DNA from: a virus
Taxonomy: Duplodnaviria; Caudoviricetes
DNA length: 64,000 bases
Virus record (IMG/VR): IMGVR_UViG_3300028392_002123
Direction: 5' to 3' (one strand)
Shown here piece after piece: positions 26,395-64,000 of this stretch. The stretch's first letter is position 1. The number at the start of each line of letters is the position of its first letter. Both the position numbers and the translations under genes were made by a program. The notes beneath the pieces were generated by a model. It did not search any database. It had not been told where the DNA came from and worked only from the letters and a program-made list of their open reading frames with translations.

Positions 26395-26631
26395 TTATTT
26401 GGTAAACAATTCTGCTTCTCGTTGTCGATTGGACAACATAGTGGGATCTTTTCGTCCATTTCGAACAGCCCATCTAAGAAATTCATCTGCGACATTTAAA
26501 TCGTTTTGATTAATTTTTTTAAGTATAGTACTGTTTTGAAAAAGTACTATACCAATGTCATCGGCCAAGCTGGTCAATGCTTGAAGTTGATCAGTTGTCA
26601 ACTCTACTTTAATTAAATTTTTTATCTGCAT
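26395..26631 (-). CDS. C-terminal half of a GH24 phage lysozyme (no catalytic N-terminal region)
   Basis: LTTDQLQALTSL...STILKKIN...DEFLRW...NRQREAELF; TGATG coupling to dps. Confidence 0.7.
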   Translation of the reverse strand: MQIKNLIKVELTTDQLQALTSLADDIGIVLFQNSTILKKINQNDLNVADEFLRWAVRNGRKDPTMLSNRQREAELFTK

Positions 26632-27152
26632 CAAGCTCTATTTAGCTTCAAGGTAGACGTTAACATCCATAGATGTTTGTCATGAGCATCTTGACGATCT
26701 GCCATTAAGTTAGCAAGGCCATGATTGCCCACTGCTTCAGCAAGTTCGTAACATCTGACCAAGCTGTCTAATACAACACTAGAATCATCTACTAACATCT
26801 GTATCATAGCACTGGCTGTTGGTATTTCAACTTGATCTTCTATTTCTGCTAGTTGACCGAATCTAGTAAAACTAGCTGGAGCATAAGCACCTAATGTGCG
26901 AACACGTTCTGCAATCGTATCTACACTACCATATACTTCTTCATAGATAGTGCTAAACAAAGCATGGTATTGTGGAAAGTTTGGACCTTCTACATTCCAG
27001 TGAAAGTTCTGTGCTTTAAGAGAAAATGCATATTCATTTGCTAAAACTATTTTGAGTGCTTGTACTAATTCATCCATACTAGATTCCTTTGAAATATTTA
27101 CATTATTTAAAGTATTATCTGTGTCATCGGCTTCAACAAAAGTATTATCCAT
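26631..27152 (-). CDS. dps: Dps/ferritin-like DNA starvation protein
   Basis: KAQNFHWNVEGPNF..YHALF, DTIAERVRTLG, DKHLWML. Confidence 0.93.
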   Translation of the reverse strand: MDNTFVEADDTDNTLNNVNISKESSMDELVQALKIVLANEYAFSLKAQNFHWNVEGPNFPQYHALFSTIYEEVYGSVDTIAERVRTLGAYAPASFTRFGQLAEIEDQVEIPTASAMIQMLVDDSSVVLDSLVRCYELAEAVGNHGLANLMADRQDAHDKHLWMLTSTLKLNRA

Positions 27153-28608
27153 TGCTTAACTCACGCTCAACTTGTTTAACCCAAGCACTGACATCGCTGG
27201 TACCTATTTCTTCTACATCACCTACAAAGTCGGCAACACCGTCAATGGCCTGCATAATTCTTTCAGGTCCGTATTTTAATAGTAAATCATGATGGCCGCT
27301 TAAGATACGACGAGTAATAGCACTGACCACTGGATTAACAGCGTCGTTGCTTTCTGGTACTATTTCTTCTTTCTTCAATGCCTGTCTGCCATATTTCAAT
27401 GATGGTAGAACCGAAGGATGCAATTTCTGTTGAATTATAGAAGCAACAAAAGAATTTTTCTTTTCTTTGTTTTCTTTATTGCCTTCCGCCACACCTTGTT
27501 CACTGTGTCTAATATCAGGATTATCAATTTGTTCTGCCACGCTGTTTAAGTGATCATTGGCCACAGTAATATAACTATACATCCAACCGTCTAGACTAGT
27601 ACCTTGTTCTAAAACTTGTTTGATCTTCATTATATTTTCAAGAATAGCATTTACTTCACCATGTGCCATGCCATCAATTTCTTGATCTTCTGTTACACCT
27701 TGCTGTTTGCGACGAGCAAGTTCGCGAGCAACTGCTTTTAACTGTTGAGCAAACACAGGACTTTGACCTTGTTCGTCTTTGTGACTATTCCATAATCTTT
27801 GTAATTTTTCTGTGGGAACCTTTGACAAGTCCGCATTTTCATAGACACTTTCGTTGTGACTCTTTTTATTTTTATTGTCCAAATAACCACGCTTGTTTAG
27901 TGTAGCCCAAGCAATGTTTTCTGCATCTTTACTGCTGTGGCCTGCTTGTTTTTCGCTTTTTGCAATGTGTCCGGCCATACGGTCTACTTTAGCACCTTCG
28001 CTGACAGGAGCGCCAGTTAATGACACAGTCCATGTTTTACCAGAACTAGCAGATTTTTTCTCTGCCCATTTTTTCATGTTGTTTAAATAATTACGTTCTT
28101 CCGCACTATCGGCATAACCTTTGCCTATGATAACTTTCCAAGGTCTGCCGTTGATACTAATTTGAATATTATTTTGTTCGTGACCTAGTTCGTGCTGTAG
28201 TTCTTGACGTTTGAAATCTTGTTTTTGTTGTGCGCCTAATTTAGGTGCGTTAGGATCTGCAAAACCATGATTGTAATCTGCTTCATCTAATTCTTCACTG
28301 TTACTGCTGGTAATCTTTTTAGCTTTGGGATCAACACCTTTGATCATATTTTCTTCTTCATCAGTGTAAGCATAAGCAAATGGTTTGTCGCTGATTTCAT
28401 CATCACTGCCATTGGTTTGTTGTTCACCATCGTGGCCAGCAACATCTTTACCAAACTTATAAAAACCATAGAACTGGTCTCCACTGAGTTCGTGCATGCC
28501 TTTGATCGCGGCCTTATGATCCTTGTGCATGCCTTCGCTCATTGCATGACCTAATCCAGTTTCATTTAGCCATGCATTGTGCTTGTTGGATAGATCATTG
28601 ATTTTCAT
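27145..28608 (-). CDS. Multi-module putative internal-head polyprotein
   Basis: Start MKINDL (ATGA-coupled); short modules separated by LNE, MSE, LDE, VSE, GVTE, GVAEG, VPE. Confidence 0.7.
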   Translation of the reverse strand: MKINDLSNKHNAWLNETGLGHAMSEGMHKDHKAAIKGMHELSGDQFYGFYKFGKDVAGHDGEQQTNGSDDEISDKPFAYAYTDEEENMIKGVDPKAKKITSSNSEELDEADYNHGFADPNAPKLGAQQKQDFKRQELQHELGHEQNNIQISINGRPWKVIIGKGYADSAEERNYLNNMKKWAEKKSASSGKTWTVSLTGAPVSEGAKVDRMAGHIAKSEKQAGHSSKDAENIAWATLNKRGYLDNKNKKSHNESVYENADLSKVPTEKLQRLWNSHKDEQGQSPVFAQQLKAVARELARRKQQGVTEDQEIDGMAHGEVNAILENIMKIKQVLEQGTSLDGWMYSYITVANDHLNSVAEQIDNPDIRHSEQGVAEGNKENKEKKNSFVASIIQQKLHPSVLPSLKYGRQALKKEEIVPESNDAVNPVVSAITRRILSGHHDLLLKYGPERIMQAIDGVADFVGDVEEIGTSDVSAWVKQVERELSNG

Positions 28609-29690
28609 TTTTTGGCTCCAGTGTTGATACCACCTTGCCATTTCTTTTCACGATCCCATTTAACTCCCATGGCACGTTCTCTACGATTAGTACCTGCCTT
28701 GTCTAAACGATCGTCATCATGGTCTTTTTCGCTGCCGCCGTAGTTATCTGGATTAGCATGATGCTTTAAACCTGTGGCAGTTGGCTCGATGCGACCTTCT
28801 GCAATACCGCGTAGGCTGTCAATCCATTCACGAACTTTCTTGGGACGACCACGACCACGTTTTGGTGCATTGGCATCTGGTAGTGCATGTTTACGTGGAC
28901 GACCACGGCCGCGTTTGGTTGCATTAGCATCTGGTTCTGGACGAGTGCGTGGACGACCACGGCCGCGTTTTTCTGTAGCGTCGCTGGCAGGCGCTACACG
29001 TTTTTTCTTTCCAGGCTTTTCGTTGCCCCATTCATCATAGTTGTCTTCGTCATCATTGACTTTGTCACTTCGATAACCGTATTTCTTACCAACGTTGCGT
29101 TCGCTTTCTGGATCTTTGGCATTTTTCTTCATTGCGCCTTGCATACCTTTAAGCAAGTTCATGTCAAGACCTTCGTGCAAACTATCAAAAATTCCATTTA
29201 ATGCATTCAGGGAAGTTGCTTCTGCAGGACGATCCATGTCCATGCCTATTTGCATACCACCGCCTAGATGTGCATCTAATTGTTGTGTTACCCATTCGTA
29301 GGGATCACCTGTACGTGCCTTGGAAATGCCATATGGCATTTCACCATGCAACATGTAATAGTCAAACAATGCTTCATACAAGTCATCGGCTAATTCATCA
29401 CCCATTTTAAAGTCTTTGACTTCTTTGGGGAAACGACTTAAAATGTGTTCCAGTGTTTCTGTAGTTTCGTTGAGTTGGCCTAGTCCCTGTACAAATGCAT
29501 CATGTGTGCCTTGGTCTAAACTGGATTCATATAAACCGTAAACTTCTTTAACTTCCTTGGATTCTAATACTAATAGTTCTGTTCCTGCAAGAATAGTAGC
29601 GCCGGTGTTATAACGATGTGCTTCTACGATTTTTTTAATGTTGACACGCCCTTGGTGTGCATCATTGTCGAACATTTCAAATAGTTTCAT
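28605..29690 (-). CDS. Multi-module protein with three AT-hooks
   Basis: KRGRGRPR x2 and KRGRGRPK; leader MKLFEMFD. Confidence 0.8.
   Translation of the reverse strand: MKLFEMFDNDAHQGRVNIKKIVEAHRYNTGATILAGTELLVLESKEVKEVYGLYESSLDQGTHDAFVQGLGQLNETTETLEHILSRFPKEVKDFKMGDELADDLYEALFDYYMLHGEMPYGISKARTGDPYEWVTQQLDAHLGGGMQIGMDMDRPAEATSLNALNGIFDSLHEGLDMNLLKGMQGAMKKNAKDPESERNVGKKYGYRSDKVNDDEDNYDEWGNEKPGKKKRVAPASDATEKRGRGRPRTRPEPDANATKRGRGRPRKHALPDANAPKRGRGRPKKVREWIDSLRGIAEGRIEPTATGLKHHANPDNYGGSEKDHDDDRLDKAGTNRRERAMGVKWDREKKWQGGINTGAKK
28843..28970 (-). repeat. Three AT-hook-coding direct repeats
   Basis: cgtggacgaccacggccgcgttt at 28894-28916 and 28948-28970; variant at 28843-28862. Confidence 0.85.
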
Positions 29691-29701
29691 AATATTAACC
29701 T

Positions 29702-29887
29702 TTATTTGTTTTCAAGAACATTCTTTACCATACGAGGTTTACTAATGTCTGTGGATTCTTTTTTGGCCCTTTTGCGGGGCATATTGCGTTTCATAGGTAC
29801 AGAAAATATGTTTCCAGCTGGCGCGGCAGCAACAGCACCGCTGGCAGTAATACCCATGTCCTCGGCAATAATTTCTTTTATTTTCAT
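29702..29887 (-). CDS. Small basic protein with CTS-like leader
   Basis: MKIKEIIAE-D; ATAAATA at 29893-29899 upstream. Confidence 0.7.
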   Translation of the reverse strand: MKIKEIIAEDMGITASGAVAAAPAGNIFSVPMKRNMPRKRAKKESTDISKPRMVKNVLENK

Positions 29888-29922
29888 AGTATTATTTATC
29901 CAATATTAATCAATATTGAAAA

Positions 29923-31236
29923 TTATTCAATGCTGGCCAACTCAGCTAGAACAGGACCTTTTTCAATGTAATTCCTGCGAACTTTGCCGTTGTTTTCTGT
30001 TTTGTGTCTAACAGTGAGGAAAATCTTACCTGAGTTCTTGTCAATGATATCTACTCTTGGATTCTTAGTAGATTCATTGTAGACGCTGTCTAAGTTTATT
30101 TGTTTAAGTTTCTTGGCCAGTTGACTGAATTTAAGAACTTTATAATGACCGCTTTCAAAGCTTACTAGTTCTATGCTGGGGTCATTTAACGTGGCAAAAT
30201 AATCAATGCCATTGATAAATTTACGAACATACATATATTCTTCGTCGTCATAGTCACCACTGAGTAACTGCTTGAGCAACATATCTGCTTGTCTGTAAAT
30301 AAATTCTATGGCAGCATCTGCGCCCTGATCCTGATATATTTCATTGTATTCAGCTTCATAGGAATCTATCAAGATACCAAACTTTGCCCACAGTTCTTTC
30401 ATTTTACTAAATTCACTGCCACCCACTTGTCCCATTTGATCGCTGCCTGCTTTTAAGCTGATGTTTAGTTTACGTTTGTCAACACGACCGGTTTTAGGAT
30501 CTGTTACATAAACTTCAACGTCTGTTTTACGAGTCTTTTCTCCACTGACTCCATCGCTGACCACATTAATAATGTCGGGTTTACCGTTCATAAAGAAATA
30601 CTCGCTGTACTCCTGTGCTCTAGTACTGTTGGCATAGGCCAGCGCACTGGCCAGCAAATCATTTAATAACGGACGTTTTTTTGGATCCATGATGTCTCTA
30701 TATGGAGCCGCTTTTAATCTTAGAGTGAACTGTATTTTATCATTTACCACAGTACGACCTTTGTCTTTTACTTCTATGCTGTAGTTGTCTTCGCCGGTGT
30801 TTTTTAATTGATCTATTACTGCCCATACTTCAGGACCACCAACGTTGCCAATACCACTGCTGACTCTAGCACTTAATTTGGCAAACATTGCCGCACCTAG
30901 AATACCTTCTGCAATTTCACCTCTGTTGGCCACTTTATCTGCGGTAAGTCCAGTGCCGCCAAATTCTGCTGTTTTAGCAAAGCTTGACAGTGGTTTAAGT
31001 CCCTTGTTAGTCTGCACACTGATGGCACCGCGTAGTGTACCTTCATCGGCTAGCTGTTGTAGTCTCTCTGCTTCTTCGGGTTTGATCTTTACTTTACTGC
31101 CATCAACTAATTCAAACGTGCCGTTGTCTGTGATTTTAGCGATAAGAATGCCTAACTTTTCATAGTTACGTTTGGCCAACTCCGCTGGCGACAAATTAGA
31201 AGCTTCTAACAGTGATTTTATTTCAAGTAATCTCAT
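29923..31236 (-). CDS. Putative PD-(D/E)xK restriction-endonuclease-fold protein with CTS-like leader
   Basis: NRGEIAEG helix, KTDVEV...NISLK; leader MRLLEIKSLLE. Confidence 0.55.
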   Translation of the reverse strand: MRLLEIKSLLEASNLSPAELAKRNYEKLGILIAKITDNGTFELVDGSKVKIKPEEAERLQQLADEGTLRGAISVQTNKGLKPLSSFAKTAEFGGTGLTADKVANRGEIAEGILGAAMFAKLSARVSSGIGNVGGPEVWAVIDQLKNTGEDNYSIEVKDKGRTVVNDKIQFTLRLKAAPYRDIMDPKKRPLLNDLLASALAYANSTRAQEYSEYFFMNGKPDIINVVSDGVSGEKTRKTDVEVYVTDPKTGRVDKRKLNISLKAGSDQMGQVGGSEFSKMKELWAKFGILIDSYEAEYNEIYQDQGADAAIEFIYRQADMLLKQLLSGDYDDEEYMYVRKFINGIDYFATLNDPSIELVSFESGHYKVLKFSQLAKKLKQINLDSVYNESTKNPRVDIIDKNSGKIFLTVRHKTENNGKVRRNYIEKGPVLAELASIE

Positions 31237-31991
31237 AAATCGTAATAATATTCCCTAGGACGATGATCAACCATAACTAAGTTTTTATATTTATCGATAC
31301 TTCTGTCCATTAGGTCAATGTATTTATTAACATTTAAGTTAGTATCAAGTGTCAAAATCCATAGTATTTTTTTATATTTTGGATCGTACTCACTGCCATG
31401 ATAAGTTCTAACGTTATTCCAAGCAAATGAATTTGTATCATTTAAATCAGGAAAATGCATGGTTTTCCAGGGTGCTTCATCTTCTCGTATCCACAATGTT
31501 TCTCTGGGATTTTCGTCATAGAGTTTAATACGCATGGCCATTGGACAATCTACTAAACTGTCATCATCCCTGTGGTTTAAAATTTTATCAGTGCTGGACC
31601 ACATACGCCATAGGCCTGGTGTTGTCAAAGGAAAATATTCCATTAGTTGATCTTTTAATTCAGGGAATGTACCAAACACATCAACAACATGATTAGTCCA
31701 TACTTCGTCAACTTCTTGTGCGTTAATCGTTTTAAAATGACTGTTATAAACTCCATCTGGATTGGCTATGTTTGCTCTCTTTTTTGTCGCTACAGCACTA
31801 TTATTAAAATACCAATCAACAAACTTTTCATGATCGTCGGCCTTGATGCAAGGAATATCAAAGGGAACATAAAAATACTTTCCGTATGATTTTTCTAATC
31901 CTTCTGCGACCAATGAACCAATAGTTTTTCTAATAGGATCAGCCGATCTTCCCGCTATTACTCTTTCGCGCTGACCTTCATACATAGGCAT
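31233..31991 (-). CDS. Hypothetical protein, possible cupin/oxygenase fold
   Basis: NHRD (HxD) and later FAWNNVRTYHGS. Confidence 0.5.
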   Translation of the reverse strand: MPMYEGQRERVIAGRSADPIRKTIGSLVAEGLEKSYGKYFYVPFDIPCIKADDHEKFVDWYFNNSAVATKKRANIANPDGVYNSHFKTINAQEVDEVWTNHVVDVFGTFPELKDQLMEYFPLTTPGLWRMWSSTDKILNHRDDDSLVDCPMAMRIKLYDENPRETLWIREDEAPWKTMHFPDLNDTNSFAWNNVRTYHGSEYDPKYKKILWILTLDTNLNVNKYIDLMDRSIDKYKNLVMVDHRPREYYYDL

Positions 31992-31994
31992 AAC

Positions 31995-34460
31995 TTAATC
32001 TCTATGTAAGTCTGGACGGTTGGCACTCAACCAAGCTTTGGCATTAGCTAAATCATCAAATACTTTGCGTGTGACTCCACTGCTGTCAATGACATGATAG
32101 CGAACTTCTGTGCTGTCGTCTATGCGCTTACGTGTAACACGTTTAATGCCAGGTTCACCTTCCCTAACTGAACGCATACCTTCATCCACGGCATCGACTG
32201 CTTGCCCTAGAGCACTGACACTTTCTTTTTTAGCTGTTTTAGGAAACTGTGTTCTCAGTACCTGTTTTAAAATTGCCTGTGCTTGGGGATTGTTGGCCGG
32301 CAACATTTCTCTATCTAAAGCATAATATGCCCATGTAGTATAGCTGTTACTTTCCACAGTATTAACACCTGCACTTATATCCACTGATATTAATCTTGCT
32401 ATAGATTTTATTTGTGGAACCAAGGTCACAGTATAAAATTTGTCAACGGCTGTATCCTGTGCTTTTTTCTTTCTATCTTCATTTCTAAATTTAGCAACTA
32501 ATTTTGTTTTTGCCAAGTTGCTGTTTGTTTCAATATTGCTTACTGTGTACTGTTTGCCAAACTGTTGTTTTACTATATCTTCAACTGTCTTGCTACGTGA
32601 TACATTCCATATGTAGAATTTAAGCACAGGCAACCCTTTTGTTCTAATAAAATTGGCCGCTGTGCTAGCTGTTGTATCGGATGTAATTTCTGGTTTGTCA
32701 CCGGCCAGTTTGACCAATTTGGTTTTATATTCATTGGCGTATAAATTAGGATCGCTGGCAATGATCATAGCACGAATAAAACGACCAGCAGTATTATATA
32801 TGCCCGAAAAATCTGCTAGGTAATTGCCGCCGGCATGTCTGAAACTAATGTATTTGCCATTGTAACTGATACTGGCAGTATGTTGACGACTATAAGAAGC
32901 CACAATACCCTGTAACATTTTTTCATCAACTGTGTTGGTCTGTCTGGGTTTGTCAAATACAGTGGATTGTTTTTTACCTACCTTAGTTTGTATTGCGTTG
33001 TCGTCACTGGTGGCCACTGCCGTGGATAAGTTTTTAGTCACGCTGTCCGCATATCTATTATTCTCACGACCAAAGTAACGTAGTACATACTGATCGCCTA
33101 GGAATACTGCCAACTTCAATACATCTAACTTTTGTGGTATACTGACGTTGATGTGCAGGCCTGTTGAATTATTAGTGTATAATTTAAGCTCTTGTGCTAT
33201 AGTATAAAACTTTTTAAGAGCGTCGATGGCAGTGGCCGCAGGCAATGGTGGGCTGACAATCTCAGCACTACTTTCTGTTTCTTCATCATTGGGAGATAAA
33301 CTTCCATCTGGTTCCACGTACCAATCAGTTAGGTTTTTATCTTCTTCGTGATAGTCATTGAATATGTTTACTTTTGCGCCCATGGCTGCTTGTACTGCTG
33401 TGGCTATTACCTTGGATGCTTTGCTGTAATTTTCATCTTCATCGTAGCTGTCCCAGTAATCGTCATCTTCTTCATCATAGTCATCCAATCTTAATAATTC
33501 CCATGCAGACTCGGGGTCAGTGTAAGTGAATAAATTATTAAAGTTTCTTTCTACTTGTGCTGGTGTTAATCCCAGTGCAAATCTAAAAAGTTGTGGCCAG
33601 CCAATGCGGCTTACCATTCTTAGTTCATTTCCAAGCATTTCTAATCTGCTGCCGCCTCTAGAATTAAAATACATTAAACGGCCTAGTCGATTAGCAAATG
33701 TTAGCTGTGTTTCAATACTTTTATTTGTGGGCATCGGGCCATGTTCTTGTTTATATTTTTTTAGGAATTTTTTTCTGTCTTCTTCGGGAATTTTATAATA
33801 TACTTCAAGCACAGAATCTAGAATACCTGAATTCATATATGCCTTAAATGCTTCCTGCATATTTTTATAACCCTTTGAAGTATCTTTTAATTTAAATACT
33901 GCATCAAAACTCACCGGCTGTAGATTATCAAAGTCTAGATTATCACTGCTGAACGGGCTGTGTTCATCCAAAGCGTCTGCAATTTTCTTAGGAGTCATTC
34001 CAGTATCTTCAGCGTCCTTTTCACTGCCACCCATGTTAACTGTTTCTGCAGGAATACATACTTCAAATTCAAAACCTACTAGCACACCCTTGTCCTGGCC
34101 TGTGCTGATAGCCTTGGCAAATTCTCCAGGATTCATAGGAGCTTCGTCTAGTTCTTCTTCTTTGGTCAATGACTTTAATTTGTTCTGCTTTAACCAACGC
34201 TCGTAGTCTGCTACACTTCTGAATTCTTTCTTCTTAACATTTTGCTTGTCATGTTGATCGAACCAAGATCTCATTTTACTAGTATCTGTTGGATCTTTGG
34301 CATTTTCATCGCCGGCAAAAAAGTCGCGCATGGTTGCCAAGCTGGCTTCTTCAACTGCTTGTCTTAGTGCAGATCTATGGTCATTGTTATTTTCTACAAC
34401 AGGTACCTGAACAGTATCTTCTTTTATTTCTTGCTTGTTTATAAAATTATTAAATCTCAT
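31995..34460 (-). CDS. Amidoligase (COOH-NH2 ligase type 2) polyprotein, paralog A
   Basis: GFEFEV; VEPDGSL; EIVSPPL; TNNSTGLHINVS; ISFRHAGG. Confidence 0.82.
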   Translation of the reverse strand: MRFNNFINKQEIKEDTVQVPVVENNNDHRSALRQAVEEASLATMRDFFAGDENAKDPTDTSKMRSWFDQHDKQNVKKKEFRSVADYERWLKQNKLKSLTKEEELDEAPMNPGEFAKAISTGQDKGVLVGFEFEVCIPAETVNMGGSEKDAEDTGMTPKKIADALDEHSPFSSDNLDFDNLQPVSFDAVFKLKDTSKGYKNMQEAFKAYMNSGILDSVLEVYYKIPEEDRKKFLKKYKQEHGPMPTNKSIETQLTFANRLGRLMYFNSRGGSRLEMLGNELRMVSRIGWPQLFRFALGLTPAQVERNFNNLFTYTDPESAWELLRLDDYDEEDDDYWDSYDEDENYSKASKVIATAVQAAMGAKVNIFNDYHEEDKNLTDWYVEPDGSLSPNDEETESSAEIVSPPLPAATAIDALKKFYTIAQELKLYTNNSTGLHINVSIPQKLDVLKLAVFLGDQYVLRYFGRENNRYADSVTKNLSTAVATSDDNAIQTKVGKKQSTVFDKPRQTNTVDEKMLQGIVASYSRQHTASISYNGKYISFRHAGGNYLADFSGIYNTAGRFIRAMIIASDPNLYANEYKTKLVKLAGDKPEITSDTTASTAANFIRTKGLPVLKFYIWNVSRSKTVEDIVKQQFGKQYTVSNIETNSNLAKTKLVAKFRNEDRKKKAQDTAVDKFYTVTLVPQIKSIARLISVDISAGVNTVESNSYTTWAYYALDREMLPANNPQAQAILKQVLRTQFPKTAKKESVSALGQAVDAVDEGMRSVREGEPGIKRVTRKRIDDSTEVRYHVIDSSGVTRKVFDDLANAKAWLSANRPDLHRD

Positions 34461-34470
34461 TGTTATTCCA

Positions 34471-36576
34471 TTATGCCATTACTGGATAAACTTCATAGTT
34501 ACCATCGAAGTTATTTTCTCTTGCCCATAGTGCGGCCAATCTGTTGGCATCAGCCTGACTATTACCCACACCACGGAATCTATATACTTCGCGTCCTAGA
34601 CCATCAACCACTCGCCACTGTCCTGTAAAGTTACCGGCCGGGGATGCATTATTATTGGTACTAATAGTTTGATCATTATTACCAACTGTGCCTGCGGGTT
34701 GTGGATTACTTGCAGGAGCTCCGGTTGGTTCAACTGCCTGGCCGCCAACATGCCTAATACCAAACATAGCAGTGGCCTGTCCGTGTTGCAGGAGATGTGG
34801 ACCCATTCTAATATAATCCTGTAAATGTTCTAATGCTGTTGCATCGTCACTGACAAATCCAGTCGGCACACGTTCTACACTATTACCAGTTAATTTATTA
34901 TAAATTTCATAGCGTGGCGTATTATCTGCTTGATCGTAGGGTCTAACTGGTTTTGCAGTAATGTTTGTAGCATTAGCCCAGTCTGGATATTCTGCTCGTC
35001 CTTTTTCGATAGCTTCTTCTTTGCTGGTAGCAACAACTTCAACACTGGCACCATAGCCAGGACGTCCCACACTCCACCAATATTTTGTACCTGTTGGACC
35101 TTTCTTTAGTTTACGCTGTAATTGTGCTTGTTTGACAAAACTACGTAGTGCGGCCTGTGGCATTTCACCAGCACTATACTTGGCAAAGTATTGAATTGTA
35201 TCTGTTGAATCGTTGCTGGGAGTTAATAATTTATAAAGTTTTTTAGCATATTCTTCTTTGTATTTTGTTTCATCACAGGCGGCATCCAAGGCCACAACAA
35301 AACGCAACAAGGTATTGGTAATATTTCCTTCGTCGGCAGCATACTCTCCCAGCCAATCTCCGCCAGGACTGCGGAATTCAATATATCCTGTTTTTGTGTT
35401 GATACTAGTATATTTGCTGGTAGCTCCACTGTGAATAACTTTGCCAGCCAAGGTCGCTAGACCCTGTTTCATTTTGTCCAGGATAATTGCTACATCATCA
35501 GGGCGTTGAACAATACGTTCTTTGACAATGTCCACAGCACTCTTACAGTATGTATTGCCCAGCCTGCCAAATTTTTCTAGAATGTATTTGTCACCCAACA
35601 ACAATGCTAGTTTCGTATAGTCTAGCTTTTCCATGCTAAAATCAGGAACACTGACGTTGATGTGTAGGCCAGTGCTGTCATTGGTATAACAACCTTTGTT
35701 ATTAGCCCAGTTAACAACTTTGTCCAAGTCCGACAACATTTCATCTAGGGGTAAAGGCGGGCTAACAAATTCCAGGCCGCCGTCACTGCTGTCGTCTGGA
35801 TCTAAACTGCTGTCTGGTTCTACTACATAGTGTCCTGCTTCTCTGCGGCCGCCGTGATATCTATCGCTGGCATTTACTGGACGTCCTATCTCTCGACTAA
35901 ATTCATCTGCTACATCATCAACACTGATACCAGATTCTTGACTATGATAATGCGGCCAATTAATATCATAGTTACTTTCAACATCGGACATATTTTCTAT
36001 GCCTTCGTGTTCCAACCAATCACTTTCTAAGTCAGCATTACTATAAAAATCATCACGGAAATCATCTTCGGCATCTTCGTACCATGGACTAATTTGATCT
36101 TCTATTACTTTGTCCGTGGCCTTGGCAAAATCTTCTTTTGTTGGTTCGGGATACTCGCCGTCTTCATTGTGTTCAAGTTCTAATATACCGGCAATATCTT
36201 CGGCATTGGCGTTTTCTTTTAACCATCGATAAATGACTTCGCTCATGTCCGAATCCCAACGATCGTGTACCTGTTCATCCAGCCATCCATGATAGTCTTC
36301 CTGCATCTTATCGCGAAGACGTTCTACGTCTCTGCGACCATTATAATCACCATCATAGAAAAAATCGTAGGCATCCTGAATACTGCGAATACCTTCGTCG
36401 CTGTCATAGTCTGGCTCAGGATATTCGTCGTTGTCTCCTTGACTGGCACCAGGAACAATCATTTCAAATTCCATGCCAGCACGAGCATCAATGGTAGCGG
36501 CTATTGTTTTTAAATTAGATGGACTCATGTTGATCTCATCCAAGCGTTGTTCGTTGATAACGTCTAATAATTTCAT
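34471..36576 (-). CDS. Amidoligase (COOH-NH2 ligase type 2) polyprotein, paralog B
   Basis: GMEFEM; VEPDSSL; LEFVSPPL; TNDSTGLHINVS; IEFRSPGG; leader MKLLDVINE. Confidence 0.85.
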   Translation of the reverse strand: MKLLDVINEQRLDEINMSPSNLKTIAATIDARAGMEFEMIVPGASQGDNDEYPEPDYDSDEGIRSIQDAYDFFYDGDYNGRRDVERLRDKMQEDYHGWLDEQVHDRWDSDMSEVIYRWLKENANAEDIAGILELEHNEDGEYPEPTKEDFAKATDKVIEDQISPWYEDAEDDFRDDFYSNADLESDWLEHEGIENMSDVESNYDINWPHYHSQESGISVDDVADEFSREIGRPVNASDRYHGGRREAGHYVVEPDSSLDPDDSSDGGLEFVSPPLPLDEMLSDLDKVVNWANNKGCYTNDSTGLHINVSVPDFSMEKLDYTKLALLLGDKYILEKFGRLGNTYCKSAVDIVKERIVQRPDDVAIILDKMKQGLATLAGKVIHSGATSKYTSINTKTGYIEFRSPGGDWLGEYAADEGNITNTLLRFVVALDAACDETKYKEEYAKKLYKLLTPSNDSTDTIQYFAKYSAGEMPQAALRSFVKQAQLQRKLKKGPTGTKYWWSVGRPGYGASVEVVATSKEEAIEKGRAEYPDWANATNITAKPVRPYDQADNTPRYEIYNKLTGNSVERVPTGFVSDDATALEHLQDYIRMGPHLLQHGQATAMFGIRHVGGQAVEPTGAPASNPQPAGTVGNNDQTISTNNNASPAGNFTGQWRVVDGLGREVYRFRGVGNSQADANRLAALWARENNFDGNYEVYPVMA

Positions 36577-39500
36577 TGCGGTTTCTTCCAAGCTTTTGCA
36601 GGAACATTCAGTGTCTTTTCTAAATGTTTAAGCGAAGCATTAATTAATGTATCTGAACTATCGCGTCCCGGTTGCCAGTACCAACGACCACTCTGTGTTT
36701 GTCTTAGTCCCATGGCTTTTAAATCAATGTGACTAAAACTGCCACCGCCACGACCTACATCAAAGAAGTATAGTGTATCAGCAGGATTGCCAGCACTTTC
36801 ATTTTTAGGTTTCTTATGATGCTTTTTCATGTTGATGGCTATAGCGGCCTGCTGTGCGGCATTACCTTCTTCTATGCTTTCATTGGGCACACAGTTATTA
36901 ACTCCGACACCGCCTTTGATCTTAGTGCCTTCTTTGTGCTTGCCTTTCCAGCACTTGGGATCTAATCTTTGTCGAACACTTTCGGCCATGCTGACATTAT
37001 TTTTTAGGTCTTTTGTAATTAACTGTAGTAATTCTTTGGCAGCACCATCGCCCCACTCTAGGCTTTTGATAATAGCGTGTGCGCCTTCCTTGCCTATTTG
37101 TTGAATAATATGCTGTAGTAATTCTCGAGTAACATGTGGTACACCTTTGGCATCACCTTCTGCCTCCGCCACACCCTCGCCTTCGTCTAAGTCCCACACG
37201 GTCCTCAATCCAGATCCGCCGTGATCGCTGAGTAATTCATCAATCATTTCGCTGACATGACTGTCTAATTTATGTTGTGCCGCTAGTCCGGCACGCTCAC
37301 CTTTGGTTACATAGATGCTGGCAACTTTCTTTGCGTTAGCAAAATCTTCGGGTTCATAGCCCAACTCATCGTTTTCAGCTTCATACTCGGGTATGTATTT
37401 TAATATCATTCGACCAATGGTTGGACCAGCATCTGATTCTGCAGTTTTGCCTTGAGCAATATTAGTAATTTGATTTATATCGTCAATTTGATTTGTATTA
37501 CCATTTGCGCCCATGCCTTGCCATACATTGATTTGGTATGCTGGTAGGCCAGTGGCCTGAAGACCGCGATTCATATCGGAAAAATATTTGTTGATGGCTG
37601 ACACGGTTTTAACTATCATAGCAGCCAGTTGCTTTTGATTGTGAGTAGTAAATTCTTTATTGGTATCGAAATACACCTCTGTATAGCCTTGCCCTTGGCC
37701 AGGCTCAACCAAATCCCATCCGTATTTTTGACCAATGACTGTTAATTGTTGTTCAATTCGATCAGGAGTAAATTTTAGGTCTTTTATCAACTGACCTGGA
37801 TCATCGGTGGTAGCAGGCAAGGCTCGGCCATTTACTGTAGCGCCACGAATCCGTTTAGATGGTTGCTCACTGGCATAACTGACTGCAACATATCCACTAA
37901 CAGGATCAGGAGTGTTCTTTTGAATAGCACCCATCATTTTTTGGAATTTTGGATCATCGGTTGCGGCTTCCGCCACACCTTGCTGACCAATTTGTACTAA
38001 CCATTCTAATTCATCGTCAGCATCTTTGACATCAAAGAATTTAACATTAGGAATCTTCTTGGCAGCAAACCATTTGTTGGCTACTTTAACCATAAGGGCA
38101 CGATGTTGTGGATCACGAACATCCGGCTCGTAGCCCCCTGTTAAGTTTGCCCATAACGCACTTGGATTACCATTGCGGTCATAACCTAATAGTTCACGCC
38201 ATTGTTGTTGTAATTGTTGTGGTACATACTGATCTAACTCTGTGTCACTCATCCACTCTTGACCAATGTCAACACCTTCCGCCACATTTTTTTTACCATA
38301 CCGTTGTAGTAAATCTTTACCTGTACTTAATTCAAATGCATCTTTTACATAAGGTCCTAAACGTTCAATAGCACGTTGTTCTATCTTAGGTAAATTTATT
38401 TTAGCATCTTGTATGTTATCATATTCCCCGTATAACACTACTGCACCATCCCAAGCCCATACATAATATTTGCTTGGATCAACATTATACTTACCGCCAT
38501 TAATAGTCTCGATGCCTTCCGCCACACCTTGCTTATAACTTGGTTGTGTAAGTTTAACCGGCGGCGCTTGAACTGCGGCTACTAATAATTTATTTCCAGC
38601 GGCAATAGCATTTTTTAATGCCTCATCTCTACTTGTGGCCACTTGACCAGCATCTTTGAACATAGCAGGATTGCGAACATTTACTGTGGGATTGGGCAAT
38701 GGTTTGTTGTTTATAAAATATTCTTTATTGTTGGCATTTTGTAATATCCACTTGTTTACCTCATACCTATCTTTTAAGAATTGTAGTTTGCCCTCTCCGT
38801 CTTTGCCATCAGTGGGGTCGAGTCCTGACTGAGTCAATTGCTGTAAAAATTTTCCTTGATTTTGTGGATAAGCATCCATATGTTGCACTAACAACCAAGC
38901 CGCATAAGGTGCCGCAGGATATGACCCTTTACCGTCCGCACCTTTGTCAGATAGTATTGTGTTTATATTTTGTTGTATATATGGCCAAACTTTAGCTTGG
39001 AAACCGGCTCGACGAGTAGGATCTTTAAATTGCTGATCTTGATTCATCCAGGCATTAAGTTGTTGTCGAATTTGGTTTGTATTTTGTTCCAAGCCTTCCG
39101 CCACACCTTCTGTTAGATCTTCTGCAGACCATGACTGATAGCTACGGCCATGCTCATCACCACTACGTATCACAAACACGCCGCCGTTGTCGTAGCCGCC
39201 TTCGTCTTCGCCGATTTCCCAGCCAGTGCGAGCCAGTATTTCTTCTATTTTTAACTGTGTGGCTTCGTCACCGTTCCACCACATACGAGCATACTTGTGT
39301 AAGATGTCATCTTCACCGTCACCGCCGCCATTGCCGGGCGCAAATTCATTTAATGAACTTTCACTGACAGGTGCTAGATATTGATCAAATACTTGTTTAA
39401 TTCTTTTTGGATCTGCGGCCCGGGGATAAAGCTGTTTAATAATGCCTAGTCTGCCAGCATCATCTGCTTCGGCATACATTGCACGTACTTGACTGCCGCT

Positions 39501-39959
39501 GTATACTTCTTCACCATTGACATCAAACACATGTTTCTTAGTAACAAACACATAACCGTGCTTGCTCAATGGTTCACATTCTGCAACACTATGAAATGGT
39601 TGATAGTAACCAGGCGTGCCATCTTTTTTGGTATAGGGCATAGGGTCGCGTTCACTGCGAACTATTACTAGAATATCTCTTTCGGGATTGAATTGTTCTG
39701 TGATTTCTCGTGGATTAATTGGCTGACGTACCTGTACAAAAGGATCTACCACGCCTGCTTGCTGTGCTAAAAATTGTTTGGCTTCAAAGGGAATAGGACG
39801 AGTCTTTGTATCATTGCTGGCCGCTACAAAGAACTTGGCATGTGGGAACTCTTGTTTGGCTTGAATATAACTGCTCATGTGTCCTTGATGAAAGGGCTGG
39901 AAACCACCGCCATATACTACGATTACCTGTGGTTGATCTTTTAATTCTAATAAACGCAT
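36573..39959 (-). CDS. 1128-aa polyprotein: N-terminal HxGH nucleotidyltransferase plus about 8 modules joined by VAE/VAEG linkers
   Basis: GGGFQPFHQGH, SGSQVR; five VAE linkers; DUF6624-like AAWLLVQHMD module; CWKG...NCVP module. Confidence 0.85.
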   Translation of the reverse strand: MRLLELKDQPQVIVVYGGGFQPFHQGHMSSYIQAKQEFPHAKFFVAASNDTKTRPIPFEAKQFLAQQAGVVDPFVQVRQPINPREITEQFNPERDILVIVRSERDPMPYTKKDGTPGYYQPFHSVAECEPLSKHGYVFVTKKHVFDVNGEEVYSGSQVRAMYAEADDAGRLGIIKQLYPRAADPKRIKQVFDQYLAPVSESSLNEFAPGNGGGDGEDDILHKYARMWWNGDEATQLKIEEILARTGWEIGEDEGGYDNGGVFVIRSGDEHGRSYQSWSAEDLTEGVAEGLEQNTNQIRQQLNAWMNQDQQFKDPTRRAGFQAKVWPYIQQNINTILSDKGADGKGSYPAAPYAAWLLVQHMDAYPQNQGKFLQQLTQSGLDPTDGKDGEGKLQFLKDRYEVNKWILQNANNKEYFINNKPLPNPTVNVRNPAMFKDAGQVATSRDEALKNAIAAGNKLLVAAVQAPPVKLTQPSYKQGVAEGIETINGGKYNVDPSKYYVWAWDGAVVLYGEYDNIQDAKINLPKIEQRAIERLGPYVKDAFELSTGKDLLQRYGKKNVAEGVDIGQEWMSDTELDQYVPQQLQQQWRELLGYDRNGNPSALWANLTGGYEPDVRDPQHRALMVKVANKWFAAKKIPNVKFFDVKDADDELEWLVQIGQQGVAEAATDDPKFQKMMGAIQKNTPDPVSGYVAVSYASEQPSKRIRGATVNGRALPATTDDPGQLIKDLKFTPDRIEQQLTVIGQKYGWDLVEPGQGQGYTEVYFDTNKEFTTHNQKQLAAMIVKTVSAINKYFSDMNRGLQATGLPAYQINVWQGMGANGNTNQIDDINQITNIAQGKTAESDAGPTIGRMILKYIPEYEAENDELGYEPEDFANAKKVASIYVTKGERAGLAAQHKLDSHVSEMIDELLSDHGGSGLRTVWDLDEGEGVAEAEGDAKGVPHVTRELLQHIIQQIGKEGAHAIIKSLEWGDGAAKELLQLITKDLKNNVSMAESVRQRLDPKCWKGKHKEGTKIKGGVGVNNCVPNESIEEGNAAQQAAIAINMKKHHKKPKNESAGNPADTLYFFDVGRGGGSFSHIDLKAMGLRQTQSGRWYWQPGRDSSDTLINASLKHLEKTLNVPAKAWKKPQ

Positions 39960-41911: not shown

Positions 41912-43120
41912 TTATGTGAAGTAGATGTACGGTACATTTTGAGGAGTGCCAGTAGTAATGGTCTTAACTGCCCAGGTTACTCCTGAGTCCGTGCTAACTT
42001 TTATGTTGTTGCCGGCAATTGGTACAATTACTGTAGAACCGTTTCCTATCATTCTTAGATTGGTTGTATAATTGTCACCTGTCCAGGTTGATTTATTTGG
42101 ACTGCTCCAAGATGCTCCGTTATCAGATGAAGTATATGATACGCCATTGTAACTGCCACCACCACACCAGATGACCCAGTTGTTGCCACCACAGTATCTG
42201 ACCTGTGCTTGACCGTTTGTGTTGGTTGTGACCGCAGGACTCAGTGTTGTTGAACTGAATGATGCACCGTTATTGGTACTGCGATTGATAAAAATATTGC
42301 CTGGAGAACCACCACTTGCAGATACTGCAATATACACACCATTACCATAGGCAGTACCACCCTGAACCATGTACCCTGAACTGCTAATGGAACCTCTAGA
42401 TGACCAACTGGTTCCATTGGTCGATGCGTAAACTGTATAGGTACCAGAGTTTGGATTATGTCCTAAAAATTCTGAGCCAGTCCAGGTTATTAATGAAAGA
42501 GTTCCTACACCTAAACTGCTGGCAGTTAGTGTCCAGCTAATACCATTACTTGATGTCATGTGTTGCCAGCCACTGCCAAGCCTATTATAGGCTACCCAAA
42601 GGCCATTGCCGTAGGCAACTGATGATGGTATACTACAAAGATTTGGAAATGCGCCACCGGTGTATATAGGACTGCTGGTAAATGAAGAACTGCCACCCGA
42701 GCCAGAGATCACTAGCGATCGTAATTCTGGATTACCAGAACCATTGGAAGTGGTACACAATATCAATGCAGTACCGCTTGGTCCTTCGTTTACACATTGT
42801 AAGTATGCGCCACCACCATATGAGAAATTGCTTGATGCAATAGATGTAAAATTTACAGCCGTACCCCAAGTCCAAGTTGGTAGAGTTAAAATTTGATAAT
42901 AATTATTATGCCCTGAAGTTGCAAAGTCGATGGTAGCCAGTTTACCCGACGGGCCATTGCTCTTGCCGTAAAAGTCGGCGGCCAGGCGAATAGCACCAGA
43001 TGCAACGCCAGCTAGGCCTCTAGGTACTGCTCCACCAATGCTAATTTGTGCAGTGGTGCTATTACCTAATTCAGTGTTTACATTACCTAATGAAATTGTC
43101 CCGCTGGCTTGTAGTGTCAT
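41912..43120 (-). CDS. Virion structural/fibre-associated protein with BNR-like SxDG/SxNG repeats
   Basis: MTLQASGTISL...FYGKS N-terminus; repeated SSNGISW, STNGTSW, STNNGASF, SSDNGASW, STDSGVTW. Confidence 0.7.
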   Translation of the reverse strand: MTLQASGTISLGNVNTELGNSTTAQISIGGAVPRGLAGVASGAIRLAADFYGKSNGPSGKLATIDFATSGHNNYYQILTLPTWTWGTAVNFTSIASSNFSYGGGAYLQCVNEGPSGTALILCTTSNGSGNPELRSLVISGSGGSSSFTSSPIYTGGAFPNLCSIPSSVAYGNGLWVAYNRLGSGWQHMTSSNGISWTLTASSLGVGTLSLITWTGSEFLGHNPNSGTYTVYASTNGTSWSSRGSISSSGYMVQGGTAYGNGVYIAVSASGGSPGNIFINRSTNNGASFSSTTLSPAVTTNTNGQAQVRYCGGNNWVIWCGGGSYNGVSYTSSDNGASWSSPNKSTWTGDNYTTNLRMIGNGSTVIVPIAGNNIKVSTDSGVTWAVKTITTGTPQNVPYIYFT

Positions 43121-43139
43121 AGTAGATCCAAAATAAATG

Positions 43140-43241
43140 CTCACTAAGAACGCCATTCCAGGGCACGACTCCTATAACGTTCTGCCCAGCAGCCGGGCAA
43201 CCCTTTAGTAACGCTAACGTCCTAAGGTAGGGTGTTACTAG
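43140..43241 (-). ncRNA. Candidate structured non-coding RNA
   Basis: GC-enriched intergenic stretch with several complementary pairs, starting right after an ATAAATA box. Confidence 0.45.
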
Positions 43242-49529: not shown

Positions 49530-50873
49530 TTATTTATTTTTACCGCGGCGCATGTTCATTTGCCAACGTGCCAGCTGTCCTTTACGACCCGATGCATGAC
49601 TGGCCTTTTCCAGTTCGGCCATGGTGGCATGTTTGGGTATGCCATGACGAACGCTGTCTCCGGGGCGACCCGGGCCTTTGCCATCCGCAAAGTTTTCCTC
49701 TACACCCGGTTTTTTAACAGGACTCCAGTGGAACACAGTCATGCCCATACTGGGATATTCTTCCGGTTGCCACTTTGCACCCAGTATGTTCTGTATCACA
49801 GGAACAAAATACCGACGATATAAGCTGGCACGGTTATCACCTTTGGCAGTAAATGATACGCCAGGTGGACGAGCTTTGGCCATGTATTCAGGCAACTGTC
49901 GTTTAACAATATCAAGAACTGTGCTCAATATTTTCACTGTTGATCGGCTGGCACTTGTGGCCTGGCTTGGTGTGTCGTAATTGCCATTCACAGCAAATGT
50001 GATGTGCAAGGTGTCATTGAATTCACTGCGATCAAAGAACACATCTACCCAGTGGCCATCCACAGTGGCATGAAACAGACTGCGCTTTCGCTTGCGATTG
50101 GGCTTGTATTCAGCAGGTGCATTGCCCAGCTCAGTGATGGGCTCAACAGCAATCCAAGCCATGATATCGGTCTTGTTCAACAACTCGGCCGCGGCCCATG
50201 CTCTATGATTACCGTCTAAGATATAATTATTAGAATCTAAGACAATAGGATGTTTATCTATATAATGTAAACTGTGTTCTCCGGCATGTTCTGGATCAAT
50301 ATACATAACACGATTATAAGGATCATCGGTTTCACTGCCTTGTTCTTCATCATTGTATTCTTGATCGGGTATATGTATATCGGCCAGTGGCACACGTTTT
50401 AATTCATATTCTGGATATTTCATTATCAAGTTTTTTAAAAACCCACCACCCTGTTGGTCCTTGGGATGTATTTTACTTACATAACTCCATACTTGTTCAG
50501 CTGAAGCAATCTTAGTAGATATAGATGTTTCCCACACGCGAACATCTTCGCCTTTGTGCTTGTTCCAGAATCCTGCGCCTGCATCAGTTTGATCCCAGCT
50601 ACGCTGTATTTTGTAACCTTGGCTTTTAACAAAGTCATACATTATTTTAGCAATTCCTTGATTACGGAATTTTTCTTTGACAAATAAATCTTGGGGATCT
50701 AATTCCCGACCGTCGCCGATGTTAAATGTAACATGCCCTAGTTCGTTGCCCCAAGTTGAATCAAGTGCATTTACAAACAGTTGGCCATTGTCCTTGACCA
50801 TTCTGAATTGCAGGCCTTCAAAATCTTGTAGTTTACCCTGCTCACGTTCAACTATAAATTCATGTGCTCTCAT
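49530..50873 (-). CDS. Polyprotein: GNAT + ParB/Srx-like + unknown repeated module + basic C-terminal module
   Basis: Leader MRAHEFIVE; FRNQGIA; PIVL..ILDGNHRAWA; junctions VWE, ITE, GVEE. Confidence 0.8.
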   Translation of the reverse strand: MRAHEFIVEREQGKLQDFEGLQFRMVKDNGQLFVNALDSTWGNELGHVTFNIGDGRELDPQDLFVKEKFRNQGIAKIMYDFVKSQGYKIQRSWDQTDAGAGFWNKHKGEDVRVWETSISTKIASAEQVWSYVSKIHPKDQQGGGFLKNLIMKYPEYELKRVPLADIHIPDQEYNDEEQGSETDDPYNRVMYIDPEHAGEHSLHYIDKHPIVLDSNNYILDGNHRAWAAAELLNKTDIMAWIAVEPITELGNAPAEYKPNRKRKRSLFHATVDGHWVDVFFDRSEFNDTLHITFAVNGNYDTPSQATSASRSTVKILSTVLDIVKRQLPEYMAKARPPGVSFTAKGDNRASLYRRYFVPVIQNILGAKWQPEEYPSMGMTVFHWSPVKKPGVEENFADGKGPGRPGDSVRHGIPKHATMAELEKASHASGRKGQLARWQMNMRRGKNK

Positions 50874-52798: not shown

Positions 52799-53250
52799 TT
52801 TCCATAGCCCCAATGCTTTTTGCCATTTTTACGGTGCTTTTTAGATTTCTTAATTATTTGATCTGGTTCACCAAAGTCTACTTTAATCACACGACCAGTC
52901 TTGGGATTCTTTGTATAGACTTTAATTTTTTCTTTTTTCTCAATGACAGTTTCTTCACCCATGTGTTTAAAATACTGTACTTCTCGTTCACGCTTTTCAG
53001 CACCAGCATGAGTAGGATACTTACCCAAATTTTTACCAGTTTTTTTGCTTTTTAATTCCCAGCCACCTTTGACTTTGACAATATGTTCTAGCAGAGTCAT
53101 GTCATTTCCCGGAGATTCGACTATGTATGTTGCTATATGAGTTGTTTTATTGATGCCAACAATAACTGTTTCGACAATAGTGCCGTTTATGTTAAATTCT
53201 AAAATATCGCCAATTTCTGGCTGGCCAGTATCAACTTCGTTTAATCGCAT
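52795..53250 (-). CDS. Small multi-module protein with CTS-like leader
   Basis: MRLNE; modules after LLE and VIE (KNLGKYPTH..., KVYTKNPKTG). Confidence 0.65.
   Translation of the reverse strand: MRLNEVDTGQPEIGDILEFNINGTIVETVIVGINKTTHIATYIVESPGNDMTLLEHIVKVKGGWELKSKKTGKNLGKYPTHAGAEKREREVQYFKHMGEETVIEKKEKIKVYTKNPKTGRVIKVDFGEPDQIIKKSKKHRKNGKKHWGYGK

Positions 53251-60532: not shown

Positions 60533-64000
<3,468 letters not shown>

Follow-up and report, generated by a model that had tools for sequence, protein, structure and literature searches.

Phage T4 carries in its head a set of diverse, fast-changing proteins, the internal proteins (IPs) IPI, IPII and IPIII as well as Alt, which are delivered together with its DNA (PMC9026906, PMC3012670). 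Here we describe what appears to be a related form of cargo in a 64,000-nucleotide (nt) stretch of phage DNA, IMG/VR record IMGVR_UViG_3300028392_002123 (the whole stretch is called the window). A short DNA repeat, TGTGGCGGARG, recurs in two of its genes, P0001 and P0002, where it forms the core of a linker that encodes Q-G-V-A-E-G or a close variant. The best overall explanation, which we consider probable, is that both genes encode cargo polyproteins whose linker provides crossover homology and a protease site at once.

The T4 IPs share with this putative cargo a short N-terminal leader that ends in aliphatic-x-Glu. Their capsid targeting sequence is removed by gp21, and their loci are polymorphic among T-even phages. 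A conserved leader motif and its conserved flanking DNA were reportedly proposed by Repoila et al. in 1994 (cited in PMC2839356) to mediate the shuffling of IP genes. The recombination sequences proposed for T4 are ~70 bp long and largely intergenic, whereas the block in the window is 20 nt, in frame and intragenic. The T4 IPs also differ in having one gene and one leader for each cargo protein, while the window places many modules in one reading frame, with a putative processing site that is internal and reiterated.

Promoter-early stem-loops (PeSLs) are repeated DNA motifs that flank variable modules and act as preferred crossover sites, placing insertions and deletions acceptably, and their authors likened them to integrons (PMC2839356, PMC4122927). 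The window likewise has a reiterated conserved motif at the borders of variable modules, with breakpoints inside the motif. PeSLs, however, are intergenic composites of ~100 bp that join a promoter to a stem-loop terminator and move whole genes, and inverse PCR has revealed PeSL mini-circles. The linker, by contrast, is part of a coding sequence and only a fifth as long, lacks promoter and hairpin, and moves protein modules in frame. Chimeras of T-even phages offer another comparison: their crossovers often fall within or near short in-frame motifs, the glycine-rich motifs of gp38 and the conserved boxes of gp37 (PMC3157838). In gp38 and gp37 the motifs belong to the structure of a single folded domain and separate segments that are variants of each other, whereas the linker joins unrelated domains and resembles a cut site; its striking feature is conservation at silent sites.

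Polyvalent proteins (Iyer, Burroughs, Anand, de Souza and Aravind, 2017) are long, contain many unrelated effector-type domains and are thought to enter the host with the DNA and, for some of them, to be processed, which is ascribed to embedded peptidase domains (PMC5512222). P0001 similarly holds about nine unrelated modules, one of them with a named family, but scans against Pfam, PHROGs and NCBIfam found no peptidase family in P0001 or P0002. The terms "linker" and "shuffl" are absent from the text of the polyvalent-protein paper (PMC5512222). Integron gene cassettes form, like the linker array, a series of exchangeable units with the same recombination site repeated at their borders. The likeness is no more than an analogy: the window ORFs scanned gave no integrase, the linker has no attC-like structure, and the units here are protein modules in one frame rather than genes. 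In none of these systems is a 20-nt block that is reiterated in frame and fixed at silent sites combined with a putative internal protease site in a cargo polyprotein, and searches of the available literature found no description of this linker.

Results

The linker repeat in the window

The original prediction, made from the letters of the window, was that six copies of GTG GCG GAR mark the linker and serve as an in-frame crossover point for modules. The six copies were found where it had placed them. TGTGGCGGARG occurs at 27483, 37163, 37967, 38276, 38516 and 39095, always on the minus strand, against an expectation of 0.04 copies in dinucleotide-preserving shuffles. All six read in frame as (G/N)-V-A-E-(G/A), five of them in P0001 (E-G-VAE-G, Q-G-VAE-G, K-N-VAE-G, Q-G-VAE-A and E-G-VAE-A) and one in P0002 (Q-G-VAE-G). 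A longer 17-mer is exact at two sites, carries one mismatch at two more and three mismatches at another; the sixth site, at 37163, is more diverged. The sequences flanking the six copies are mutually unrelated, and the copies are therefore not the remnants of a longer segment duplicated recently.

The codons at these sites are far from the background of the window. Across 44 open reading frames (ORFs), GTG accounts for 15.6% of Val codons and GCG for 8.0% of Ala codons; only six of the 104 Val-Ala pairs in these ORFs are written GTG-GCG, and all six are at linker sites. When synonymous codons of P0001 and P0002 were shuffled 5000 times, the repeat appeared 0.085 times on average and never more than twice, compared with the six copies observed. 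The AT-rich codons that had been noted at similar peptides outside the linkers were confirmed as well, with VAE written GTT GCT GAA at 61310 and 45998, and IAE written ATT GCA GAA at 28794 and ~30905.

Conservation of the linker in related phages

The window belongs to a freshwater jumbo phage of the T4 superfamily, with a genome of ~340 kb. P0001 is located on a 340-kb JGI contig, and words of the polyprotein region are present in freshwater metagenomes from 13 studies. The family-B DNA polymerase is 44–47% identical to those of Atu_ph07, Phosso and Rak2-like phages, and 54–59% identical to those of five IMG/VR genomes of 300–360 kb.

An exact scan of IMG/VR for a 15-mer, AGGTGTGGCGGAAGG, found it in at least 120 stretches. 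Among the matches listed, 154 of 167 copies read as G-VAE-G within ORFs that are 150 residues or longer; Gln precedes 104 of these 154, and 33 stretches hold two to four copies, surrounded by very diverse peptides. A control 15-mer written with the favoured codons (GTT GCT) never occurred twice in a stretch and had no preferred context among the matches listed. Both scans give lower bounds and are comparable only for frame, context and copies per locus.

To sample the linker independently of its DNA, we gathered 56 loci by protein homology to P0001. In these loci, GTG-GCG was used at 42 of 60 G-VAE sites but at only 15 of 885 other Val-Ala pairs. A codon-by-codon tally over 65 linker sites extended this pattern to the neighbouring residues. 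Gln was always CAA (43/43, background 0.69) and the Gly after it nearly always GGT (63/65, background 0.46); Val was GTG (53/65, background 0.14), Ala was GCG (53/65, background 0.08), and the following Gly was mostly GGC (23/31, background 0.26). At position -2, where the residue varies between K, E and Q, the third base is still mostly G (AAG 15/15, CAG 5/6, GAG 8/16). A nucleotide profile computed from 281 sites is conserved from -8 to +11 around GTG, drops sharply outside these limits and shows no conservation beyond them. The resulting consensus of ~20 nt is AG CAA GGT GTG GCG GAA GGC, encoding Q-G-V-A-E↓G (the arrow marks the putative cut), and contains no inverted repeat, dyad symmetry or attC-like structure. 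The silent positions of the linker are fixed not only in the window but across related contigs, which number in the hundreds. Counts of the 11-mer in complete relatives are 7, 5, 4, 1 and 0; it is found on one strand only within each genome, and its copies cluster within a few tens of kb of the polymerase gene, as they do in the window.

Old junctions, in which the same modules lie on both sides at ~50% residue identity, still have identical linkers. In L140-142 (related loci are given handles in L) the linker bases match at 15 of 15 positions, compared with 32 of 61 flanking silent sites, and in L005 all 11 core bases match; silent sites in identical flanking codons of old junctions match at only 52–62%. 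Protease-type sites elsewhere in these phages are written differently. The scaffold genes of the relatives encode LVAEG with GTT GCA and FVAES with GTT GCT. As these codons are ordinary, the fixed DNA is a property of the junctions at which modules are swapped. These sites, the conserved wobble base at a variable residue and the identical linkers at old junctions together argue for a process that acts on DNA rather than on peptide or translation, and point to one that is tied to the junctions.

Module exchange at the linkers

To delimit the modules, we compared P0001 and P0002 with all fetched loci by tblastn and blastn. Homology cuts P0001 into about nine modules (Table 1), each with its own relatives in differing contexts, and some of them also exist as stand-alone genes. 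NCBIfam and PDB sequence searches and Pfam gave a named family for module A only, a HIGH-motif nucleotidyltransferase of the cytidylyl/adenylyltransferase superfamily (PF01467, TIGR00125). Against GenBank phages, megablast of the polyprotein region found no match and tblastn matched the N-terminal nucleotidyltransferase alone; ESM Atlas searches with modules C and F gave no usable match. A single-sequence AlphaFold2 model of P0001, with a mean predicted local distance difference test score of 38, was uninformative on domain limits.

Module D has moved recently. Window positions 38534 to 38276 are 98.8% identical at the nucleotide level, over 259 nt, to positions 10001–10259 of L129; the identity begins in one linker and ends in the next, and the sequence outside is unalignable. 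Since the polymerase genes of the window and of the L129 contig are only ~66% identical, this cassette was transferred between distant phages. Both crossovers lie inside or at the edge of 20-nt blocks. The loci contain seven isolated segments of at least 95% identity. Linkers bound four of these segments at either end and two more at a single end; the chance of a random segment end falling at a linker is 0.6% per end. Modules also change partners. Among upstream module clusters seen at least twice, 28 of 30 occur next to at least two different downstream clusters, and the converse is true of 29 of 31 downstream clusters.

The same pattern was visible in a syntenic relative, L305, which is 80–90% identical to the window in nucleotide sequence across the neighbouring genes and modules A and F–H. 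One more module follows A in L305, a canonical QGVAEG takes the place of the window's VSE↓S, and different modules stand in for C, D and E between linkers; the 90% block of L305 begins at window position 37984, two bases before linker 4. Alignments to other loci stop or start at the linkers too. Those to L005, L130 and L035 end at 39094/39095 (linker 1), those to L050, L115 and L305 begin at 37981–37991 (linker 4), those to L146, L145, L073 and L050 start or stop at 37165–37174 (linker 5), and the alignment to L147 stops at 27478 (linker 6). In four freshwater metagenomes, contigs with a match of at least 90% to a module diverge from the window at linker edges: at 39109 (linker 1), at 38513–38515 and 38533 (loose ends at linker 2, in four metagenomes), at 38279/38286 and at 37987/37988. 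Overall, 18 of 177 internal homology ends fall at canonical linkers, compared with 4.1% expected. The enrichment is stronger yet at degenerate boundaries, three or four in number (VSE↓S, MAE↓S and IEE↓G), which retain only the aliphatic residue and Glu; where P0001 has M-A-E↓S or I-E-E↓G, relatives carry a canonical GVAEG or an N-terminal leader.

The proposal that a short repeat is an in-frame crossover point for modules is thus backed by the L129 cassette, the linker-bounded near-identical segments and the modules with several partners. Neither background codon usage at the repeat nor breakpoints unrelated to it, the two outcomes named in the original prediction as counting against it, was found. 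We conclude with high confidence that the linker is a junction for module exchange that is conserved at the DNA level.

Metagenome sequences that appeared to join one linker directly to another were considered as deletion variants and discounted, as the shorter side of each joint, 19–25 nt, is the repeat itself. Metagenome depth peaks over modules C, E and H; because this depth sums contigs of all organisms, the peaks give only a weak hint of copies in other genomes.

A predicted protease site

Cut sites of the T4 gp21 type have an aliphatic residue at -3. The prohead proteases of the T4 family recognise a short motif, which they cleave after Glu (PMC9026906, PMC5694885). [quoted passage not shown] As a sequence pattern, the V-A-E of the linker fits the aliphatic-x-Glu site of such proteases. 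The linker, the degenerate boundaries and the leaders all retain the aliphatic residue at -3 and the Glu. Module H is preceded by a linker in some phages and by a leader ending in (L/I)-T-E in others, indicating that linker and leader are interchangeable.

The window contains no head genes, but of five near-complete relatives, with polymerases 54–59% identical to that of the window, four encode gp23 (PF07068) and a gp21-type protease (PF03420, Peptidase_S77). Among the best 120 of at least 8000 matches, the proteases of the relatives are 87–98% identical, which would hold the peptide motif steady across the clade, and their capsid protein opens with two L-L-E↓G sites. From this homology and motif we judge it quite likely that the linker is cleaved by the prohead protease.

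Discussion

Our preferred explanation would work as follows. P0001 and P0002 would be cargo polyproteins, in which a single kind of linker strings small, unrelated modules together. With its N-terminal leader the chain would enter the prohead, where cleavage would release individual proteins to accompany the DNA. Because the linkers share sequence and reading phase, a crossover between any two of them, within one genome or between co-infecting relatives, would yield a readable, viable in-frame chimera, and cassettes could be gained, lost, replaced or reordered in this way. The crossovers would be made by T4-type recombination machinery, which is efficient and would be satisfied by short homology; in T4 a stretch of less than 50 bp suffices (PMC2839356). 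Consensus-keeping linkers would go on being propagated into new successful combinations, while drifting linkers would freeze in place, which would explain the degenerate boundaries. Crossing-over homology is the simplest account of the block and the best reading of its sequence, and the DNA identity of the linker is probably the substrate of module exchange.

Several points weigh against this explanation. Cleavage is inferred from homology and motif logic, with a protease known from relatives only. A block of 20 nt is short for efficient homologous recombination. The comparative data fit both a repeat that causes crossovers and crossovers that survive only at domain boundaries, and keeping a sequence for the sake of future recombination would be second-order selection, which is hard to establish. 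One complete relative lacks the 11-mer, and another has a single copy. Degenerate boundaries (VSE↓S, MAE↓S, IEE↓G and NE↓S) still delimit modules in both genes, and some relatives have no linker at a linker-homologous position; a canonical linker is therefore not required for a boundary.

Alternative explanations differ in which part of this account they replace. One of them, that the repeats reflect chance, ordinary codon bias or the leftovers of a recent internal duplication, can draw on the small number of copies in the window (six) and on nothing else. It is refuted by both shuffles, by the unrelated flanks and by the recurrence of the same codons in independently ascertained relatives, and we give it practically no weight. 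Alternatively, the nucleotides might be kept for a function other than recombination, such as a translational pause that helps modules to fold or an RNA element, in which case breakpoints would lie at linkers simply because selection keeps domains intact. Both GTG and GCG are used rarely by this phage, the block contains AGGTG (AGGUG, Shine-Dalgarno-like), and the motif is confined to the coding frame and strand, all of which would suit such a function. A pause is nevertheless a poor fit: next to its rare codons the block has some of the most frequent (CAA, GGT and GAA), and GTC, the rarest Val codon, is never used at the 65 linker sites. Conservation also extends into the wobble base where the residue varies, degenerate boundaries and leaders delimit the same modules without such codons, and AGGTG is not followed by a start codon at suitable spacing. 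This explanation would also leave unexplained the near-identical cassettes that end inside the block, and we consider it unlikely.

Two further alternatives accept the linker as a site of exchange. Exchange could be driven by a dedicated site-specific nuclease or recombinase, integron-like or homing-like, that recognises the 20-nt block. The sharp edges of the block and the many HNH and GIY-YIG endonuclease genes in these genomes are consistent with such an enzyme, which was also considered for the PeSL motifs by those who described them (PMC2839356). On the other hand, scans of the window ORFs, which covered the small ones in part, gave no integrase or recombinase family, the block lacks an inverted repeat or attC-like structure, copies per complete genome range from 0 to 7, and across the loci examined the polyproteins have no neighbour gene in common. 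A dedicated enzyme thus seems improbable, and its boldest form, a "protein-level integron" in which a phage enzyme excises and inserts coding cassettes in frame at the block, still less probable; if real, it would let a clade of giant phages trade injected effector modules on demand. The remaining alternative keeps the linker as a swap junction but leaves it uncleaved, so that whole polyvalent multi-domain chains are formed with GVAE as a flexible spacer. A spacer of small residues is plausible, and some polyvalent phage proteins are packaged unprocessed (PMC5512222). This would not account for the invariant Glu and the aliphatic residue at -3, as in T4-type sites, or for the VSE, MAE and IEE boundaries that keep exactly these two positions. 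The same module behind a leader ending in (L/I)-T-E, modules found as separate genes and the closely similar gp21-type proteases of the relatives also speak for cleavage. We regard an uncleaved chain as possible but rather doubtful.

If cargo polyproteins with a dual-purpose linker are the correct explanation, abundant lake phages have a simple way to evolve their arsenal of injected proteins: one short sequence would be both the protease site that frees the modules and a crossover point that is safe for the reading frame. T4 capsid targeting and motif-mediated shuffling would then extend from whole genes to intragenic modules, and the linker would be a clear case of silent-site conservation tied to recombination. 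Hundreds of small modules of unknown function would become candidate anti-defence or host-takeover effectors. The linker could provide a search handle for such cargo, and perhaps a design rule for loading foreign proteins into T4-type heads.

Features of the window and neighbouring genes

The features of the two polyprotein genes are listed in Table 1. For P0002, a start at the ATG at 28608 (MKINDL, 487 amino acids), overlapping the upstream stop, is more likely than the one listed.

Table 1 Coordinates of the polyprotein genes, linkers, boundaries and modules in the window (aa, amino acids).
Feature	Position	Strand	Description
Polyprotein gene P0001	36573–39959	-	1128 aa; ~nine modules; five canonical linkers
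P0001 N-terminus			Leader MRLLEL; gene overlaps each neighbouring gene by 1–4 nt
Polyprotein gene P0002	27145–28641	-	498 aa as listed; one canonical linker and one GVTE variant
Linker 1, E-G-V-A-E-G	39093–39110	-	17/18 consensus bases; modules B/C
Linker 2, Q-G-V-A-E-G	38514–38531	-	18/18; modules C/D; left edge of the cassette shared with L129
Linker 3, K-N-V-A-E-G	38274–38291	-	14/18; modules D/E; right edge of the cassette shared with L129
Linker 4, Q-G-V-A-E-A	37965–37982	-	17/18; modules E/F
Linker 5, E-G-V-A-E-A	37161–37178	-	13/18, Glu written GAG; modules F/G
Linker 6, Q-G-V-A-E-G	27481–27498	-	18/18; in P0002
Variant linker, Q-G-V-T-E-D	27685–27702	-	13/18 bases; in P0002; module boundary in relatives
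Two degenerate boundaries	36867–36989	-	Around Cys-containing module H
Degenerate boundary M-A-E↓S	aa 991–993 of P0001
Degenerate boundary I-E-E↓G	aa 1029–1031 of P0001
Module A	39360–39959	-	aa 1–200; ends at degenerate boundary V-S-E↓S
Module B	aa 201–288
Module C	aa 289–481
Module D	38277–38516	-	aa 482–561; recently exchanged cassette
Module E	aa 562–664
Module F	aa 665–932
Module G	aa 933–993
Module H	aa 994–1055
Module I	aa 1056–1128
Minus-strand gene run	26631–53283	-	Tightly packed; putative capsid-targeted cargo genes

At least 11 genes of the minus-strand run (27–53 kb) begin with M-(K/R)-x-x-(E/Q/D/N)-(L/I/F/V/M). In several of these genes the leader runs on into I-T-E↓A, L-I-E↓A, I-V-E↓R or L-L-E↓A, which in pattern alone is reminiscent of the T4 capsid targeting sequence, and the leaders are written in mixed codons. 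The run encodes a DUF6267 protein, two amidoligase-like proteins, a GNAT-like protein, a GGACT and GH19 muramidase-like protein and a protein with three AT-hooks. The leader-bearing genes putatively mark a large cargo gene cluster. An ORF of 61 residues at 29887, within the run, starts with MKIKEIIAE.

Several genes of the run have features of their own. Three tandem 54-nt repeats at 28843–28971, in the gene at 28605–29690, each encode a K-R-G-R-G-R-P AT-hook-like motif; they sit in a leader-bearing protein of 361 residues, which the motifs suggest is a DNA-binding head protein. At 50870–52813, a leader-bearing protein of 647 residues (MKASDFLIE↓A) combines gamma-glutamyl cyclotransferase-like and GH19/endolysin-like domains and may be a wall-degrading enzyme carried in the virion. 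Two adjacent leader-bearing proteins at 31995–36591 (821 and 706 amino acids) each contain an Amidoligase_2 domain, and a direct repeat in their genes (33136–33179 and 35645–35688, 75% identity) suggests that they are paralogues. A ferritin/Dps-like gene (PF00210, E 8e-25) at 26631–27152 overlaps the end of P0002 and is positioned between the cargo genes and the DNA polymerase gene. Outside the window, ORFs that resemble homing endonucleases, with GIY-YIG-like and HNH-like N-termini, lie directly downstream of the major capsid gene in three complete relatives (L177, L179 and L180).

The T4 late-promoter box, TATAAATA, is not enriched, with 2 copies compared with 6.5 expected. A G+C-rich element of ~95 nt lies on the minus strand at 43140–43235, just upstream of the ORF at 41912–43156, and is 83–91% identical in L131, L152 and L145 despite differing downstream genes. 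Rfam gave nothing at gathering score anywhere in the window, this element included. RNAalifold, run on only four sequences, folded it into three hairpins with 33 pairs, 6 of them with compensatory changes, and the last hairpin overlaps GGAG and the ATG. The element is a candidate structured 5' leader or riboswitch-like element.

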